44,419 nt of DNA from a virus, in the UHGV virus genome UHGV-0384003; one strand, written 5' to 3'. This document shows, piece after piece, positions 25,929 to 30,561 of the stretch; the stretch's first letter is position 1; each line of letters starts with the position of its first letter. Under the pieces are notes generated by a model that saw only the letters and a list, made by a program, of their open reading frames with translations, searched no databases and was not told where the DNA came from. The translations under genes were made by a program, and so were the position numbers.

Positions 25929-27343
25929 TGACATCAATCAGAACATATAAACAAGCTATAAGTTATCTGAAAAGTTTAGAGGGGAAAGCATGGAACCCTG
26001 ACAGAACCTACGGGGTGCAATGCTTTGATCTAGCTAATCAATATTGGTTGTATCTATTCGGTCATACTTTAAAAGGTGTAGGTGCTGCGGATATTCCGAC
26101 ATGGAACAATTTTACTGGTGAAGCTACTGTTTATGAAAATACACTATCATTCTTAGCTAAACCCGGAGATGTCGTAATATTCAATAGAAATTATGGTGGT
26201 GGTTATGGTCACGTTGGTATCGTCATCTCTGCTACCTCTAACTCTATAACGATACTTGAGCAAAACTGGTTGGGTGGCGCTTATTGGACACCACCCGAAG
26301 TAACTACGAGACGCACACATGGTTACGACTTCCCTATGTGGTTTATTAGACCTTTCTATGCTAAAGAAACGACTAAAAACAAACTTAAAAGCAAAGCTAA
26401 GCCAGTTAAGAAAGCGAAAGCTAAGAAAGGTAAGAAAATATTACTTGTAGCTGGACATGGTAAAGGTGCTTATTCAAATGATCCCGGTGCAGTGGCAAAT
26501 GGATATAATGAGCGTGACTTTAACAGAAAAGAAATTATCCCTAGAATCAAGAACTATCTTGAAAGTGTAGGCAATACGGTTATTTTATATGGTGGCAAAT
26601 CGATGAACCAAGACTTGTATCAAGATACGTTATATGGACAACGTGTAGGCAACTATTCAGATTATGGTTTGTATTGGGTTAAAAAGAACGTGAAACCTGA
26701 TGCGATTGTAGAATTCCACTTAGATGCTGCTAGTCCACAAGCAAGTGGCGGACATGTCATTGTAAGCGACAGATATCCGGCAGATGATATTGATAAGGCA
26801 TTATCTAGCGCTCTAGGTAAGACAGTTGGCAAAATTAGAGGTGTGACACCTAGAAATGATTTATTAAATGCCAACGTTACTGGACAACTTAATTTAAATT
26901 ATAGATTAATCGAATTAGGTTTCATAACAAGTAAAAAAGATATGGACTATATAACTAAGAACATCAACAGTTTTACTAAACGAATTGCAGAGGCTATCAA
27001 TGGTAGACAAATCAATGCGCCTAAGAGTAAGCCTTCCAGCAAAAAGACAACATGGAACTGGGGAGGCACTTTTTACCCTAACGCACCTAAAAGTGGTATT
27101 AGAGTTAGAAGGTCGCCGGGTATCAATGGTACTATTGTTGAAAGTGGCTCATGGTTATACGGAAAGACAGATTGGGTTGAATTCGACCAAGTTATTAAAA
27201 AAGATGGATATTGGTGGCTTCGCTTTAAATATCAAGCACCCGGTTCAAGCAAAAAAGATTTCTACTGCGCTGTTTGTAAAATTACAGATAAACAACAAAA
27301 AATAAAAAACGAGAAATATTGGGGTAAAATAGATTGGAAATGA
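25928..27343 (+). CDS. endolysin: CHAP + N-acetylmuramoyl-L-alanine amidase (amidase_3-like) + SH3b cell-wall-binding domain
   Basis: CHAP motifs ([10 protein letters not shown] ... GHVGIVI). Central amidase motifs ([17 protein letters not shown]). C-terminal SH3b ([23 protein letters not shown]). Canonical position after the holin. Confidence 0.9.
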
Positions 27344-27370
27344 TATAATTAAATTACCACGACATTACAC

Positions 27371-27401
27371 AAGGGTAGTCCTAGCGACTGCCCTCTTTTT
27401 T
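27371..27401 (+). terminator. rho-independent terminator of the lysis cassette
   Basis: AGGGTAGTC-ctagc-GACTGCCCT stem followed by a T8 run. Confidence 0.65.
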
Positions 27402-27402
27402 T

Positions 27403-27411
27403 ATGTTATAA
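27403..27411 (+). promoter_or_regulatory. extended -10 promoter element (TGtTATAAT), copy 1 of a duplicated CTCTTTTT(T)ATGTTATAAT motif
   Basis: TG at 27403-4, TATAAT at 27406-11. The same 20-nt motif recurs at 27473-27492. Confidence 0.45.
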
Positions 27412-27417
27412 TCAAAT

Positions 27418-27481
27418 AGAAATTGCGGTACACATCTAAGGAGTGTATCTGAGTATAACTGTTGCGACGGTTATCTCTTTT
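27418..27481 (+). ncRNA. putative short non-coding transcript 1 (~60 nt)
   Basis: Lies between promoter copy 1 and the T-run that precedes promoter copy 2. Contains GGAGTG but no usable start codon or ORF. Internal imperfect hairpins. Confidence 0.3.
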
Positions 27482-27483
27482 TA

Positions 27484-27492
27484 TGTTATAAT
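27484..27492 (+). promoter_or_regulatory. extended -10 promoter element (TGtTATAAT), copy 2
   Basis: TG at 27484-5, TATAAT at 27487-92. Confidence 0.45.
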
Positions 27493-27498
27493 ACATTT

Positions 27499-27641
27499 AC
27501 AAAGAGCCAAGCGCTCATCCTAAATTCTCGGTAGCCATTCCGATTTAGTGGAGGCCTTGCTTGCGTTTAGCAGTAAGTAACTGACCACTCATTTGATAGA
27601 CGTCTAGTAACCGTATCTTAATAGGTACGGTTATTTTTTTA
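27499..27641 (+). ncRNA. putative non-coding transcript 2 (~140 nt) ending at a strong intrinsic terminator
   Basis: No ATG-initiated ORF. Bounded by promoter copy 2 and the terminator TAACCGTA-tcttaatagg-TACGGTTA + T7 (27608-27641). Confidence 0.4.
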
Positions 27642-27673
27642 TGCGTAATTTTCGGAAAAACATATAAAAGCTA

Positions 27674-27702
27674 TTGCTTTTATATCTCATATGATATATA
27701 AT
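27674..27702 (+). promoter_or_regulatory. sigma-A-type promoter (-35 TTGCTT, 17-nt spacer, -10 TATAAT) for the micro-ORF transcript
   Basis: TTGCTT at 27674-79 and TATAAT at 27697-702, followed by RBS AAAGGAGGG at 27714-22. Confidence 0.5.
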
Positions 27703-27731
27703 TGTATTATAGTAAAGGAGGGACAAACGAA

Positions 27732-27842
27732 ATGAACCGAAGACGAAGAAATAAAAAAGAACGTCAACAAGAACTAACGATTTGGTTAATGGTAGCGAGC
27801 CTAATAATTCAAATCATAGCACTTATTAAAACGTTCTTCTAA
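27732..27842 (+). CDS. hydrophobic micro-protein (36 aa; basic N-terminus + one TM helix), type I toxin-like
   Basis: MNRRRRNKKERQQELTIWLMVASLIIQIIALIKTFF. Perfect RBS AAAGGAGGG 9 nt upstream. Own promoter. Absent from the ORF track (under 60 aa). Confidence 0.45.
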   Translation: MNRRRRNKKERQQELTIWLMVASLIIQIIALIKTFF

Positions 27843-27892
27843 ACAGGTTAGGGCGAAAGCCCTTAACCTCATTATATATGGAGGTGCATAAG

Positions 27893-27982
27893 ATGAAAAG
27901 TGAAAAACGAATTACAATTACATTTTATCTATCAATCGTTATTTTAATACTATCAATTATAAATTTAATCTTAACATTCTAA
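27893..27982 (+). CDS. hydrophobic micro-protein (29 aa; one TM helix), type I toxin-like
   Basis: MKSEKRITITFYLSIVILILSIINLILTF. RBS GGAGGTG 6 nt upstream. Preceded by a GAAA-tetraloop stem-loop (27846-27868). Confidence 0.45.
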   Translation: MKSEKRITITFYLSIVILILSIINLILTF

Positions 27983-28008
27983 ATTAATTCGGTTCATTTC
28001 TTAAATTT

Positions 28009-28596
28009 ATGAATAATCTAAGTGAGATAAAAAACACAATACAAAAGTTATTAGATGATAAATCAATATCAAATTACAGAATTCAAAAAGATACAGGTGT
28101 ATCGTATGGAAACATTAGTGAATTGAGAAACAAAAAAAGACAATTGAAGAACTTAACCTTGGAAACAGTCGAAAAACTATATAATTATCAAAAAGGGATA
28201 GAAAAAATGAACGAATTGAATAGCAAAATGATTGAAGATGTAGTATTAGGCGAAGTTGAATTAGTGGAAAGTTTAGGTCAATACTTTATCGATATTGAGG
28301 GAGATTACAAGTATAACGTAGAATTTGCCACACTTTCAGAAGTTGATTATAAAGTTTGTGCATTATATGAGGTTGCTACAAGCAAAACTTACGAAGTTCC
28401 TTATCACGATAAATTAGAAAAAGAAGATATGAAGTTATTTTATGATAAATGGTTAGAAAAAGATCAACAGGAAGAAACTTATATCGAGAGCGTATTCTTT
28501 GTAAATAAAGAAGATGCAGAAAGCTATATTAAAGATGTATTGAAAGGCAAAGAAAGTTTAACAGAAATTGCAGAACAAATTGGTTATTTCGAATAA
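28009..28596 (+). CDS. HTH (XRE-like) domain protein with uncharacterised C-terminal domain; attP-proximal moron
   Basis: 195 aa. N-terminal ~60 aa has an HTH_XRE-like pattern (ISNYRIQKDTGVSYGNISELRNKKR). C-terminal ~130 aa acidic domain with no motif recognised. Weak RBS at 28009; an alternative start is MNELNS at 28207. Followed by its own terminator. Confidence 0.5.
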   Translation: MNNLSEIKNTIQKLLDDKSISNYRIQKDTGVSYGNISELRNKKRQLKNLTLETVEKLYNYQKGIEKMNELNSKMIEDVVLGEVELVESLGQYFIDIEGDYKYNVEFATLSEVDYKVCALYEVATSKTYEVPYHDKLEKEDMKLFYDKWLEKDQQEETYIESVFFVNKEDAESYIKDVLKGKESLTEIAEQIGYFE

Positions 28597-28601
28597 AACA
28601 A

Positions 28602-28628
28602 AACCGGGATAAATTCCCGGTTATTTTT
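28602..28628 (+). terminator. rho-independent terminator
   Basis: AACCGGGA-taaat-TCCCGGTT stem followed by TTATTTTT. Confidence 0.65.
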
Positions 28629-28840
28629 GTGTCAAAAGTGTCAAGCATGTGTCAAAATAGTTCTATTTTATTCTGTTTTGTTCTAATGAAAATGCGCGAT
28701 AAATGCTATATCTAAGCCTATTTCATGCTTGTTCTAAAATTAAAATTATCCCGCCGTCTCCATACGACAAGCTTTATACAAAGGGTTTTCAAGCTAGCAA
28801 GTGTCAATAATGTGTCAAGAAAATAATTCTCTGACACGTT
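28629..28840. other. attP region: arm-type integrase-binding repeats (GTGTCAA) flanking a putative core
   Basis: Direct GTGTCAA copies at 28629, 28638, 28649, 28801 and 28812, plus an inverted partial copy at 28832-37. The central ~150 bp contains TCCCGCCGTCTCCA (28749-62), which resembles a tRNA/tmRNA 3' end. Adjacent to the int 3' end. Confidence 0.5.
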
Positions 28841-29864
28841 GACCTTGCTCTTTTTTATGTTCTTCTAGTAAATGTGAATAGGTTTCTAACGTAATAGAAA
28901 TTGACGCGTGACCTAGTCGTTTACTTATATATTCAATTGGCAAGCCTTTGGATAATAAATAAGATGTGTGCGTGTGTCTTAACGAATAAGGGGTTATATT
29001 ATCATTTTCTAAACCCACTTGTTTTTTAGTGTGATTAAACGATTTTTTTATAGCATTGTGACTTAATTTGAAAAGTTTACCGTCAATTCGTCGTGGTAAT
29101 TTAGTTAATTTTGAATTTATCAGTAGAACATCTTTAGTCGACACTTCAACATCTCTTTTACTATTCTTTGTTTTTGTTCCAGGTAAGTGAATGATACCTT
29201 CACTTTTGTTCAAATCTTTATACGTCATATTAATTAAATCGCTATATCTTGCACCAGTAATCGCTAGTAAGTATAAAAAAATATAGCTTTGTTCATCTCT
29301 ACTTTTAAAATAATCTAACATCGCTAAATAATGCGTGATACTCATATATTTGTATCGTTCATCTTTAGCTTTAACAGTACCGTTTATAGCTATGTTATAT
29401 GTTGGGTCTTTTTTGATATGACCGTCATACACTGCATCTTTTAAACACTGACTTAAACAACCATTTACTTTACGCACTGTTTCATCTGCGTGTCCTTCCC
29501 CAAACCTATTTAAAAATTTTTGATATTCTGATCGTGTAATGTTTTTGAGTAACATATTCTTGCCGAAGTATTCATTAAATAATCTTAAAGACCGCTCATA
29601 CCAATAATACTGCATAGGCGATACTTTCTTTTTATTCTTAATGATTAACCACTCGTTATAGTAATCTTCAAATTTTTTATTTTCTTCAAATTTGCTACCG
29701 TCTTCTAAATCTCGGATTAATCTTTGTGCTGCATTGATAGCCTCAGCTTTTGTTTTAAATCCAGATTTACGTTTTTTACCAGATTTAAAACTAGGGTGCT
29801 TTACATCATACTGCCAGCTTGTAGAGTTCTTATTTTTACGTTTTGTAATAGTAAATGACGCCAT
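28815..29864 (-). CDS. int: tyrosine site-specific integrase
   Basis: 349 aa. C-terminal catalytic signature (LRHTHTSYLLSKG ... R..GHASISITLETYSHL). N-terminal arm-binding-like domain. RBS AGGAGGAATG. Confidence 0.9.
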   Translation of the reverse strand: MASFTITKRKNKNSTSWQYDVKHPSFKSGKKRKSGFKTKAEAINAAQRLIRDLEDGSKFEENKKFEDYYNEWLIIKNKKKVSPMQYYWYERSLRLFNEYFGKNMLLKNITRSEYQKFLNRFGEGHADETVRKVNGCLSQCLKDAVYDGHIKKDPTYNIAINGTVKAKDERYKYMSITHYLAMLDYFKSRDEQSYIFLYLLAITGARYSDLINMTYKDLNKSEGIIHLPGTKTKNSKRDVEVSTKDVLLINSKLTKLPRRIDGKLFKLSHNAIKKSFNHTKKQVGLENDNITPYSLRHTHTSYLLSKGLPIEYISKRLGHASISITLETYSHLLEEHKKEQGQRVRELFS

Positions 29865-29881
29865 TTAAATCATTCCTCCTC

Positions 29882-29920
29882 AAAAAAAGTAAAAAAATAA
29901 TAAGGGTAGACGGACTACCC
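29882..29920 (-). terminator. rho-independent terminator of the lipoprotein gene (minus strand)
   Basis: Read on the minus strand: GGGTAGTCCGTCTACCC hairpin followed by TTATTATTTTTTTACTTTTTTT. Confidence 0.55.
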
Positions 29921-29925
29921 ATAAA

Positions 29926-30561
29926 TTATTGAGCTGGCGTATTTTGTACCTCTTGTTGTCTTTTAGCCCAACTGTCGTAACCTTCGTTTTTACCTACCCA
30001 GATCGGACCACCTACATGAGCGTTAGGGTCATCCCAAACTTGTGCGCTTGCTTTACGTGCCTCTTCATATTCCGCGCGTCCATATCCCATTTGTGACTCA
30101 TTATGTGTAGTTGGTTTGTTTTTATTCCATTCGTTAATTTCATCTTGCGTCATATAATTATTGTTATTTTGTGATTGTTGATTGCTACTTTGTTGTTGGT
30201 TATTGTTAGCTTGTTGGTTGCCAGTGTTTTGTTGCTGTTGTTGAGTAGCTTGCTTACCTTGTGGACGTTCGTTACCGTTATCACTTTGAGTTTTCTCATT
30301 ATCGTTTTTAGATGTGCTTTCAGATTCGTTGTTAGCAACATCGTTATTACTATCATCTGAACTAGCTTGTTGTTTATCATCATTAGTGTTTTTGTTCGAT
30401 TTATCTTTGTTTTCTAATTTTTTATCTTTCTTTGGATCATTAGACTTTTTGTCTGATTTACTTTCTGACTTTTTATTATCTTCCTTTTTCTCACTATCAT
30501 TGTTACCACATGCACCTAATACTAATAAACTTGCAAATATTAAAAATAAAACCTTTTTCAT
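29926..30561 (-). CDS. lipoprotein moron (signal peptide + lipobox LGAC, long N/Q/D/K-rich disordered linker, C-terminal globular domain)
   Basis: MKKVLFLIFASLLVLGACGNN. Extreme low-complexity middle (TQQQQQNTGNQQANNNQQQSSNQQSQNNNN). Own terminator. Sits between int and cI, co-oriented with both. Confidence 0.75.
   Translation of the reverse strand: MKKVLFLIFASLLVLGACGNNDSEKKEDNKKSESKSDKKSNDPKKDKKLENKDKSNKNTNDDKQQASSDDSNNDVANNESESTSKNDNEKTQSDNGNERPQGKQATQQQQQNTGNQQANNNQQQSSNQQSQNNNNYMTQDEINEWNKNKPTTHNESQMGYGRAEYEEARKASAQVWDDPNAHVGGPIWVGKNEGYDSWAKRQQEVQNTPAQ

Follow-up and report, generated by a model that had tools for sequence, protein, structure and literature searches.

The 44,419-nucleotide stretch of DNA analysed here (virus genome UHGV-0384003, hereafter the window) holds, between its lysis genes and the integrase, an accessory region in which two conserved small-RNA-like units precede the first half of an AcrIIA13 anti-CRISPR operon. 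Positions 27344–27641 comprise a string of modular small transcription units, here called units B and C, and positions 27662–28622 the acrIIA13 operon, with two micro-ORFs (pep1 and pep2) at its head. A preliminary description of this DNA already recognised an accessory, signal-dense and largely unannotated stretch without any ORF of 60 aa or more after the endolysin terminator, and in this regard it was right: the longest ORF between the endolysin stop (27343) and 28009 has 46 aa, and every feature that it listed is present in the sequence, with coordinates shifted by 1–2 nt. Its comparison with type I toxin/sRNA loci gives way to a different reading, in which the micro-ORFs do not form a locus of their own and are the predicted first cistrons of the acrIIA13 operon, behind an operator with the published pattern of inverted repeats. 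Transcripts presumably arise from the region, for which we describe predicted transcription starts, RNAs, peptides and a long-range RNA helix. The reading that joins units B and C, as modular small RNAs, to an acrIIA13 operon carrying pep1, pep2 and a helix over a start codon seems to us moderately probable.

Judged by its sequence, the ORF at 28009..28596 (+) is a full-length AcrIIA13, that is, a fusion of an N-terminal HTH domain (an Aca-like autorepressor) with a C-terminal SauCas9 inhibitor domain. Residues 67–195 match AcrIIA13b (8k4m_A, E 3e-75) and AcrIIA13 (7eni_C, E 4e-28), the HTH matches the N-terminal domain of AcrIIA15 (E 4e-10), Aca11 (E 1e-5) and Pfam HTH_26 (28.9 bits, cut-off 22), and the ortholog in phage IME1318_01 is listed as phage AcrIIA13. 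Inhibition of SauCas9-type Cas9 has been shown for homologs (PMC7104187, PMC10901769, PMC13147308). The HTH of AcrIIA13–15 is a promoter-binding repressor that recognises inverted repeats, with autorepression shown for AcrIIA13 and AcrIIA15, and the acrIIA15 promoter has one inverted repeat at or upstream of the −35 and another between the −35 and the −10 (PMC7104187, PMC10901769). In the window, the sigma-A promoter that the preliminary description placed at 27674..27702 (+) is indeed found there (TTGCTT, 17-nt spacer, TATAAT), at a position identical in all window-type homologs; it was absent from the list of a consensus scan because its −35 matches at just 3/6 positions. Two overlapping inverted repeats at 27662..27701, assigned to neither strand, probably serve the AcrIIA13 HTH domain as operator: IR1 (27662–27671/27676–27685) spans the −35, and IR2, a palindrome at 27680–27701, lies between the −35 and the −10, with palindromes at the equivalent place in homologous loci. 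Inhibitor-domain homology, the shared HTH and two inverted repeats at the promoter, the marks of an AcrIIA13-type acr-aca fusion, are all found here. A promoter that fits the published auto-repressed acr promoter, together with acrIIA13 at 28009, makes pep1 and pep2 the predicted first two cistrons of the acr operon, which would end at a terminator at 28602..28622 (+; 8-bp stem, found on both strands).

Of the two micro-ORFs, pep1 (27732..27842, +) encodes 36 aa, MNRRRRNKKERQQELTIWLMVASLIIQIIALIKTFF, behind the Shine-Dalgarno (SD) sequence AAGGAGG at 27715–27721 (−12.9 kcal/mol), and pep2 (27893..27982, +) encodes 29 aa, MKSEKRITITFYLSIVILILSIINLILTF, behind GGAGGTG at 27880–27886 (−13.0 kcal/mol). 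Both peptides end in about 22 hydrophobic residues, as befits small hydrophobic membrane peptides, and in pep1 this C-terminal hydrophobic helix follows a basic N-terminus. The frames are intact in 6/6 loci compared, with lengths of 35–39 aa and 27–31 aa, and pep1 is broken in two further loci (L019 and L021). Moreover, motifs are conserved in pep1 (KKER, LIIQI; pN/pS 0.62) and in pep2 (LTFY, LILSIIN; pN/pS 0.64; the HTH domain, for comparison, has 0.35), and synonymous sites are near saturation among the loci that share the length, topology and motifs of these peptides. The 36- and 29-aa micro-ORFs with near-perfect SDs thus stand as probable conserved genes for small membrane peptides, with pN/pS near 0.6. 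They are mostly unannotated: pep1 is a hypothetical protein in three phage records, and a 46-aa extended pep1 matched only two S. haemolyticus hypotheticals in a large protein database. None of nine peptide variants has a family in Pfam, NCBIfam, PHROGs or PADLOC, and a role for peptides that match no described family is a guess.

Directly 3′ of the pep1 stop we find the GAAA-loop stem already noted between the micro-ORFs, a GC-rich element at 27845..27869 (+; z = −3.5) that precedes the conserved CCTCATTATATATGGAGGTG and is kept, with changes, in all clades. The whole cassette of promoter, pep1, stem-loop, pep2 and HTH gene occurs in about 20 distinct loci, in phages or genomes of at least nine Staphylococcus species (phi11, 2638A, phage 96, phi2 and PMBT9 among the carriers), and in one Facklamia genome. 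Distant HTH homologs in Latilactobacillus and Streptococcus phages have ordinary upstream genes and no micro-ORF leader, so the leader is not general to all relatives.

A further part of this leader is a predicted 13-bp helix between positions 27729–27741 and 27988–28000. Its 5′ arm (GAAATGAACCGAA, +) takes in the start codon of pep1 while the SD stays unpaired, with a pair probability of 0.83–1.0, and its 3′ arm (TTCGGTTCATTTC, +; p = 0.001) is separated by 5 nt from the pep2 stop and by 8 nt from the ATG of acrIIA13 that follows. The helix joins the pep1 start codon to a segment 5–11 nt upstream of the next cistron in 11 of the 13 representative loci. An RNAduplex test of the pep1 start region was confounded by the strong SD, which pairs with any CCUC, and was therefore replaced by a test for exact complements anchored on the start codon. 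By this test a perfect complement over the pep1 start codon is significant in 10/11 start-codon-type loci (p = 0.001–0.043 each; Fisher combined 3e-14, to be read with the shared ancestry of loci within architectures, which leaves about four independent architectures and not 13 tests). Each clade has arm sequences of its own, for example ATG/CAT as against GTG/CAC, and the ensemble pair probability of the helix is 0.87–0.99 in 12 loci. Inverted repeats acting at the DNA level, as recombination sites, were rejected as an explanation of the arms, given that the 3′ arm changes in step with the start codon and first codons of pep1. The cistron after the 3′ arm is SD-less in 11/11 loci (+0.2 to −3.1 kcal/mol, acrIIA13 itself at −3.1), against −9.4 to −17.0 kcal/mol for the other cistrons, with the L022 HTH gene as one outlier (−5.4). 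In two phi11-type loci the helix masks the SD rather than the start codon, and there the next cistron has its own GGAGG.

In the mechanism that we propose, the sigma-A promoter with its two inverted repeats would be silenced through binding of the HTH of AcrIIA13, the product of the operon itself, and the mRNA would encode first the two membrane micro-proteins, which begin with a basic stretch and end in a hydrophobic helix, and AcrIIA13 after them. On the nascent transcript pep1 would be translated. Once the full leader has been made, the 13-bp helix would bury the pep1 start codon while the pep1 SD stays single-stranded, with the SD-less acrIIA13 AUG positioned 8 nt beyond it, and in this folded transcript pep1 would be blocked and initiation gated at the SD-less downstream start. 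Such gating could follow two routes: the pep1 SD may be brought within 9–16 nt of single strand from the downstream start, a summed spacing that was counted by eye and that reaches or exceeds what is usually functional, or ribosomes completing pep2 may have to melt the 3′ arm. By either route the synthesis of peptides and Acr would be coupled post-transcriptionally; the function of the peptides and the working of the helix are both matters that we infer. A bolder proposal, tentative and in our estimate rather doubtful, makes the acr leader an RNA toggle in which one strong SD would serve two start codons in turn, and the micro-proteins a new class of early-infection factors. In the nascent RNA the SD would drive pep1, and with the 3′ arm made the SD-less AUG of the next cistron would be offered to the same SD, this cistron being acrIIA13 here and, in other phages, a pep2-acr pair coupled in translation. 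Both timing and dose of the anti-CRISPR would then be set post-transcriptionally, and the micro-proteins would be co-deployed with anti-CRISPRs for anti-defence, superinfection exclusion or timing.

A fold-back block on pep1 alone would explain the covariation equally well, and start-codon masking is what the pairing directly implies. It is possible, if not what we would expect, that the helix is a brake on pep1 only, with acrIIA13 weakly translated or re-initiated after pep2, and with the peptides as independent accessory proteins that are merely co-transcribed, for instance with a part in superinfection exclusion or another anti-defence role. In this regard, the gap between the pep2 stop and the acr AUG is just 24–32 nt in window-type loci, the HTH gene abuts or overlaps pep2 in other architectures, which is classical coupling, and the peptide sequences are under purifying selection. 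However, a simple brake leaves unexplained how initiation occurs at the SD-less pep2 of the PMBT9, phi2, 2638A, phage 96 and L022 types, whose start lies 52–61 nt and a GC stem-loop past the pep1 stop, and why the 3′ arm is constantly placed 5–11 nt before an SD-less start. The same micro-ORFs might also be purely regulatory upstream ORFs, of which only the act of translation matters and whose peptides have no function, since they are located in the leader of a regulated operon and translating ribosomes would remodel the helix. We hold this to be very unlikely: length, topology and the four motifs named above persist despite nearly saturated synonymous sites, pN/pS stays below 1, and both micro-ORFs carry strong SDs.

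The type I toxin-antitoxin reading of the micro-ORFs is neither supported nor excluded by these observations, and as a module within the acr operon (a membrane toxin encoded by pep1 and perhaps pep2, an mRNA made inert by fold-back, and an antisense RNA antitoxin) we consider it unlikely. The peptides are small and hydrophobic, and their first translation start is sequestered by a predicted long-distance interaction, as is characteristic of toxin mRNAs of the hok and aapA1 kind. Moreover, a promoter-like site on the minus strand at 27871..27899 (TTTTCA, 17-nt spacer, TATAAT) would read back through pep1. It is the best minus-strand site at that position in 6/6 window-type loci (10–11 of 12 hexamer positions matched) and likewise in both phi11-type loci, and near-consensus antisense promoters are co-located in 8/13 loci (TTGTCA, TTGCCA, TTTTCA or TTGAAA, a spacer of 17–18 nt, and TATAAT or TATTAT). 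In the phi11, 2638A and phage 96 types, pep1 has the polarity of Fst-like toxins, hydrophobic first and then with a charged C-terminus, but that of window-type pep1 is opposite, with a charged N-terminus. The resemblance to Fst, SprG or BsrG toxins suggested earlier found no backing in Pfam, NCBIfam, PHROGs or PADLOC, where none of the peptides belongs to a toxin family, and no terminator for the putative antisense RNA was found by eye. The antisense −35 overlaps the pep2 start codon, and its −10 is the conserved intergenic ATTATA between stem-loop and SD, elements that are conserved for other reasons. An Aca-type auto-repressed promoter shared with an Acr would also be an untypical layout for such a module. 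Pairing between units B and C and the peptide mRNA, which had been put forward as a check, accounts for 0 of the 10 strongest non-self pairings of these units in a crude duplex scan blind to accessibility.

Upstream of the operon, unit B (27413..27481, +) is a small-RNA-like unit of about 65 nt, with a hairpin at 27427–27449 and a terminator hairpin at 27455–27474 followed by a T-run. Unit C (27493..27641, +), of about 140 nt, comprises a hairpin at 27528–27543, a conserved core at 27548–27588 and the terminator that had been called very strong (27606–27640, +; 13-bp stem and T7). Both units, hairpins included, are found again in one Mammaliicoccus phage and in phages from at least six species of Staphylococcus. 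Among 25 distinct variants of unit B, 96.5% of cells are paired, against 21–45% with the partners slid, with compensatory changes (C-G/U-G/U-A and A-U/G-C) and a fold z of −2.5. The core of unit C (fold z −3.5 for the unit) recurs in PH15, StB20, E72, IME1318_01 and S. aureus phage 96, with an outer helix that covaries (AGTGG/CCACT, GTGCAG/CTGCAC, ATGCAG/CTGCAT). At permissive thresholds Rfam gave no family for unit B, unit C or the acr leader in the window region and 13 related loci, the top scores within 26500–30000 being mir-5 (27 bits, threshold 75) and sau-63 (17 bits, threshold 100). Unit B is annotated as an RNA feature in 0/16 phage records that carry it, and a full-text literature search returned no earlier description of the core sequences of either unit or of the stem-loop that follows pep1. 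Two coding candidates were rejected, a 26-aa GTG ORF within unit B (27443–27523), whose GTG overlaps the sole SD-like motif, and a 7-codon ORF in the unit C core, which is non-conservative between clades. The crude scan for targets, run on the whole window, gave nothing beyond self-antisense, which, with accessibility ignored, is not evidence of absence. The two ORF-less transcripts of the preliminary description thus look like real small-RNA genes, conserved and structured RNAs of staphylococcal temperate phages whose hairpins are kept across species; they are also present in loci without the acr cassette, and may therefore be unrelated to it.

The borders between these modular ORF-less units are marked by joints of terminator and promoter. 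The intrinsic terminator of the endolysin/late operon (27372..27399, +; stem 27372–27394 and T-run) has a 9-bp stem with 5 GC pairs and a T-tail, and is kept 3′ of the endolysin genes of many Staphylococcus phages. Its T-tail runs into the extended −10 box TGTTATAAT (27404–27412), and the T-tail of the unit B terminator runs in the same way into the box of unit C (27484–27492), so that each unit would start within the T-tail of the preceding terminator and end at its own. The duplicated motif noticed earlier consists of these joints, CTCTTTTTTTATGTTATAAT at 27393..27412 (+) and CTCTTTTTATGTTATAAT at 27475..27492 (+). Its two copies are real, even if the first lies at 27393–27412 and not at 27392–27411, and it is a modular terminator/−10 joint instead of a special regulatory duplication of a promoter; the T-tail nature of the copies had been overlooked. 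The exact 14-mer TTTTATGTTATAAT occurs twice in 44 kb, both times at the motif copies, and the 29-nt repeat (D1) is 83% identical. A shuffle control allowed 2 mismatches and is no measure of the significance of the exact duplication, and we take the motif as real because over 25 further phage loci have it at homologous joints, 5′ of unit B or unit C.

That the units are modular, with an order shuffled between phages, and that the terminator hairpin of unit B is re-used with a different 5′ part in phage 2638A, would also suit a mere stack of terminators, insulators and promoter remnants at a joint prone to recombination, or else RNA anti-CRISPRs that mimic CRISPR repeats, which often adjoin acr operons as these units do. 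We regard this as distinctly unlikely, given that outside its paired segments unit B hardly varies among the 25 variants from several host species, that the distance from the −10 box to its conserved 5′ end is fixed, and that compensatory changes maintain the pairing. As for an RNA anti-CRISPR, local alignments of 27344–27672 scored no higher than shuffles against the S. aureus type II-A repeat and tracrRNA and the S. epidermidis type III-A repeat, the sequences that this comparison covered, and this reading was dropped for units B and C.

AcrIIA13-type inhibitors are a well-studied family of Cas9 inhibitors and an off-switch in genome editing, and here such a gene sits behind two conserved micro-ORFs and a predicted, covarying long-range helix, with a start codon that lacks its own ribosome-binding site. 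In the current view Aca repressors, acting at the promoter, exert most of the control over anti-CRISPR operons; to our knowledge, control at the RNA level has been reported only recently, for one unrelated system, and a full-text literature search returned no earlier description of translational coupling in acr operons. Were the helix to gate the translation of Acr, it would add a new layer to the way in which phages time anti-defence, and if the peptides are active themselves, they would be new candidates for early phage functions. Workhorse phages such as phi11 carry the cassette, without annotation, in HTH-only versions, which makes the idea directly testable. Units B and C, for their part, would add to Staphylococcus two uncatalogued and widely conserved phage small RNAs.

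Among known systems, the Spr RNAs of S. aureus phages (e.g., SprD) and the DUF3800-I motif resemble units B and C as independently transcribed elements of the accessory zone 3′ of the endolysin, and a weak SprD-like match in phiIPLA88 and a DUF3800-I match in phi11 both lie in the equivalent zone, but units B and C match neither of them nor other Rfam families. Long-distance fold-back inhibits the mRNAs of type I toxins, hok (fbi/tac) and aapA1 among them, and these mRNAs share with the predicted acr leader a downstream segment that pairs with the initiation region of a small hydrophobic ORF, as well as a full-length mRNA that is closed where the nascent RNA is open. Here, however, the 3′ arm lies inside the mRNA, just before the start of the next cistron, instead of at an mRNA 3′ end awaiting trimming, the peptides match no toxin family, and the main cargo of the operon is an Acr. 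Genes 38 and 25 of phage T4 have split, discontinuous ribosome-binding sites, in which RNA structure shortens the path from an SD to a distant AUG that lacks one nearby, as may be the case for acrIIA13; the segment looped out here is 130–270 nt long and holds one or two ORFs, the SD would serve two alternative start codons, and the residual spacing of 9–16 nt is long. Aca2, which controls the translation of acr mRNA by binding an RNA mimic of its own operator, is a precedent for acr operons regulated post-transcriptionally besides at the promoter; in the present operon the element would be an RNA–RNA helix, and the operator is located 5′ of the transcript. The nearest precedents are the AcrIIA13/14/15 operons of Staphylococcus (PMC7104187; AcrIIA15 structures, PMC10901769; AcrIIA13b structure 8K4M, PMC13147308), whose main texts present the promoter and the Acr only, with no description there of two micro-ORFs, a stem-loop, a covarying start-codon helix or an SD-less acr cistron, although "GF5 gene 1" of Watters et al. 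2020 (PMC7104187) could be one of these micro-ORFs. With these operons the window shares the fusion of an HTH with the AcrIIA13 inhibitor domain, the promoter logic of two inverted repeats around the −35 and the −10, and a location in mobile elements.

In the window, a temperate siphophage of Staphylococcus, the gap following the endolysin gene (end at 27343) appears to hold the first part of an anti-CRISPR operon. The minus-strand integrase gene is at 28815-29864, and positions 27404-28050 share 96% identity with the S. haemolyticus phage IME1318_01. All the features listed in a preliminary description made from the sequence alone were found there, including a strong terminator (27606-27640), a promoter (27674-27702) and two micro-ORFs, pep1 (27732-27842) and pep2 (27893-27982), with a GAAA-loop stem at 27845-27869. 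Directly 3′ of them, an ORF of 195 aa (28009-28596) at first resembled a Cro/C1-type HTH protein in family searches. Searches against solved structures revealed matches of the last 129 residues to AcrIIA13b (8k4m, E 3e-75) and AcrIIA13 (7eni, E 4e-28), and of the N-terminal HTH to Aca11 and the N-terminal domain of AcrIIA15. By homology, the ORF is a full-length AcrIIA13 with an HTH and a Cas9-inhibitor domain, and the IME1318_01 ortholog was counted as a phage AcrIIA13 in the 8K4M paper (PMC13147308). After acrIIA13 there is a terminator-like hairpin on both strands, and beyond it TGTGTCAAAA occurs twice at a distance of 20 nt (28602-28657), in a zone where attP is expected.

Watters et al. 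(2020, PMC7104187) showed that the HTH common to AcrIIA13-15 binds inverted repeats beside the sigma-70-type promoter of their own operons; in the AcrIIA15 structural paper (PMC10901769), which also shows repression, IR1 is upstream of the -35 and IR2 is in the spacer separating the -35 from the -10. The window promoter has the same two-repeat pattern, with a perfect 10-bp inverted repeat spanning the -35 (IR1, 27662-27671/27676-27685) and a palindrome between -35 and -10 (IR2, 27680-27701), and palindromes occur at the equivalent place in homologous loci. The repeats and the AcrIIA13 downstream indicate that the sigma-A promoter described as separate would be the auto-repressed acr promoter, with the micro-ORFs as the first two cistrons of an acrIIA13 mRNA.

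The order promoter, pep1, GC stem-loop, pep2 and HTH gene is widely recurrent: IMG/VR prophages have it, and so do the phages vB_SepS_48 and PhiSepi-HH1, the S. rostri, S. pseudoxylosus, S. schweitzeri, S. americanisciuri and Facklamia languida genomes, and two genome assemblies with AcrIIA13 homologs of 193-194 aa. One of these assemblies (locus L180) shows a lactose-gene context that corresponds to the S. schleiferi context given by Watters et al. (PMC7104187). With other peptide types, the same order is found in phi11, BM31, 2638A, phage 96, phi2, PMBT9 (whose HTH gene is likewise AcrIIA13-like) and DS12. Among loci with peptides like those of the window (window-type), pep1 (35-39 aa) conserves a basic N-terminus, KKER, and LIIQI within a C-terminal hydrophobic helix, and pep2 (27-31 aa) conserves LTFY and LILSIIN; pN/pS is 0.62 for pep1, 0.64 for pep2 and 0.35 for the HTH domain, with synonymous sites close to saturation. 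Order, lengths, motifs and pN/pS argue that both micro-ORFs of the preliminary description are real genes. No micro-peptide variant matched a family in Pfam, NCBIfam, PHROGs or PADLOC.

Other arrangements were also observed. In phi11 (L025, NC_004615; 1290-1800) an unannotated HTH/aca-like ORF stands behind two unannotated micro-ORFs. Beside glnA, S. aureus and S. schweitzeri carry a chromosomal remnant (L178/L179 1300-1830; L019 900-1400) with a frameshifted pep1 and a pep2 that, lacking its stop, continues in frame into the HTH; the resulting 108-aa protein, recorded on 710 contigs, would have its HTH tethered to a hydrophobic helix. Distant HTH homologs in Latilactobacillus phage P2 (L181) and Streptococcus phage CHPC873 (L182) follow genes of 132-162 aa, not micro-ORFs, and the micro-ORF leader seems confined to the Staphylococcus group plus Facklamia.

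A repeat search revealed a perfect 13-nt complement between 27729-27741 (GAAAUGAACCGAA, the 5′ arm, which includes the pep1 start codon) and 27988-28000 (the 3′ arm, 5 nt past the pep2 stop and leaving 8 nt to the acr AUG). With other sequences, the start codon is also complemented in vB_SepS_48 (GGGAUGAGACG/CGUCUCAUCCC), PhiSepi-HH1 (AGGAAAUGAAAAGAA/UUCUUUUCAUUUCCU), S. pseudoxylosus (GAAUGAGGCGA/UCGCCUCAUUC), loci L177 and L180 (GAGUGAAACGU/ACGUUUCACUC), PMBT9 (AAUGAGGUU/AACCUCAUU), phi2 (AUGAGAAU/AUUCUCAU), 2638A (AAUGCUAGAA/UUCUAGCAUU) and phage 96 (AGUGUUAGAA/UUCUAACACU), and the 3′ arm tracks the start codon, with CAC opposite GUG and CAU opposite AUG. The length of the longest perfect complement to overlap the start codon was compared with that in 1000 dinucleotide-shuffled versions of the sequence downstream, and 10 of 11 loci reached significance (p = 0.001-0.043; Fisher combined p = 3e-14, bounded by the shuffle number). 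When whole leaders were folded by partition function, the mean pair probability of the helix came to 0.87-0.99 in 12 loci. phi11 and BM31 differ in that their complement covers the SD (GUGUAAGGAGG/CCUCCUUACAC and AUGUAAGGAGG/CCUCCUUACAU) and adjoins the stem-loop.

The pep1 SD is strong in all loci (-11.6 to -17.0 kcal/mol for hybridisation to the 16S 3′ end), whereas the cistron starting 5-11 nt past the 3′ arm reaches merely +0.2 to -3.1 kcal/mol. The six window-type loci have acrIIA13 or the HTH gene in this SD-less position; PMBT9, phi2, L022, 2638A and phage 96 have pep2 there, and their HTH gene, which adjoins or overlaps pep2, carries its own SD. The two SD-masking loci have an SD on all three cistrons. 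Acr/Aca synthesis would thus hang on an SD-less AUG just past the helix in every start-codon-masking architecture. The Acr, its autorepression by the HTH and the promoter repeats are known; for the micro-ORFs, stem-loop, helix and missing SD, no description turned up in a full-text search or in the main text of the papers on AcrIIA13-15 and Aca11. Watters et al. (PMC7104187) mention GF5 gene 1, an AcrIIA13-operon gene of function unknown there, which lacks Acr activity, has homologs that are widespread, and might be a pep1/pep2-type ORF or the 121-aa gene found upstream in L180.

On DNA entry the promoter would fire, to be shut later by the HTH domain. pep1 would be translated only with its start codon unpaired, either in nascent RNA or while ribosomes hold the arms apart; in the folded mRNA it would be blocked, its SD still being single-stranded in the MFE structure. 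The helix would leave 9-16 nt of single strand (counted by eye) between this SD and the downstream AUG, a spacing that possibly leads to split-SD initiation of the kind found in T4 gene 38/25. Alternatively, in window-type loci, ribosomes terminating on pep2 would have to melt the 3′ arm and would possibly re-initiate 24-32 nt downstream. The simplest rival, a plain fold-back brake on pep1, gives no account of the SD-less pep2 start in five loci, 52-61 nt and a GC hairpin past the pep1 stop.

The type I toxin/sRNA likeness of the preliminary description is kept as a rival. Small hydrophobic peptides and a start region sequestered through a long-range interaction fit a type I toxin-antitoxin module, as does a putative, near-consensus antisense promoter (TTGTCA, TTGCCA, TTTTCA or TTGAAA, a 17-18-nt spacer, TATAAT or TATTAT), which 8 of 13 loci have at an equivalent position in the pep1-pep2 interval. 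However, these hexamers overlap elements whose conservation has other causes, a by-eye search found no antisense RNA terminator, window-type pep1 is charged at the "wrong" end, Pfam, NCBIfam, PHROGs and PADLOC gave no toxin family, and the upstream ORF-less units B and C lack notable complementarity to the peptide mRNA in a crude scan. Such a module is considered unlikely.

Units B (27413-27481) and C (27493-27641) are read, from sequence and fold, as putative phage small-RNA genes. Among 25 distinct unit B variants from IMG/VR and GenBank phages (GenBank hosts including S. haemolyticus, S. epidermidis, S. warneri, S. pseudintermedius, S. aureus and Mammaliicoccus sciuri), the 5′ end AAAUAGAAAUUGCGG is nearly invariant, its spacing from the -10 box is constant, and both hairpins are preserved (96.5% of cells paired vs 21-45% with slid partners), with compensatory changes: one pair occurs as C-G, U-G and U-A, a second one as A-U/G-C. 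Unit C keeps the core GAGGMCUUGCUUGCGUUUAGCAGUAAGWARCUGAC within a helix covarying across clades (AGUGG/CCACU, GUGCAG/CUGCAC, AUGCAG/CUGCAU); both units folded more stably than their shuffles (z = -2.5 for B and -3.5 for C). Both occur with and without an adjacent acr cassette. GenBank OR842880.1 ("Xanthomonas phage SU1"), probably mislabelled or contaminated, carries Staphylococcus-phage-like sequence with unit B and an HTH homolog (~44066-44908).

The duplicated promoter motif of the preliminary description is present in two copies (27393-27412 and 27475-27492), each preceded by a hairpin (27372-27394 and 27455-27474); each is thus a terminator T-tail leading directly into an extended -10 box, TGTTATAAT. 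Its exact 14-mer occurs at only two places in the 44 kb, and over 25 further phage loci have the same joint, with other unit types inserted at TGTTATAAT and a varying unit order (B then C in the window, C then B in PH15). Phage 2638A (L174 ~400-490) re-uses the terminator hairpin of unit B, TAACTGTTGCGACGGTTGCC, after a wholly different 5′ portion, and in some phages the HTH gene has its stop codon within the next unit's TGTTATAAT box, two signs that modules are shuffled at the joints. The acrIIA13 3′ end (28560-28580, AACAGAAATTGCAGAACAAAT) resembles the unit B 5′ end (27415-27435, AATAGAAATTGCGGTACACAT) in direct orientation (21 nt, 81% identity), which could be chance or a recombination scar.

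Rfam gave no match for units B or C, their core sequences were absent from the papers covered by full-text search, no similarity appeared to staphylococcal CRISPR repeats and tracrRNA (the type II-A repeat and tracrRNA of S. aureus and the type III-A repeat of S. epidermidis), and no target stood out in a crude pairing scan across the phage. Rfam places a DUF3800-I match just 3′ of the HTH/aca-like ORF of phi11 (1954-2069 of L025; 54 bits, gathering threshold 44), and S808 ("Staphylococcus sRNA 808") wholly within the endolysin coding sequence of phi11 (L025 596-850) and phiIPLA88 (L005 392-646). The nearest precedent for units B and C is found in the Spr RNAs and the DUF3800-I motif, which occupy the same zone of S. 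aureus phages.
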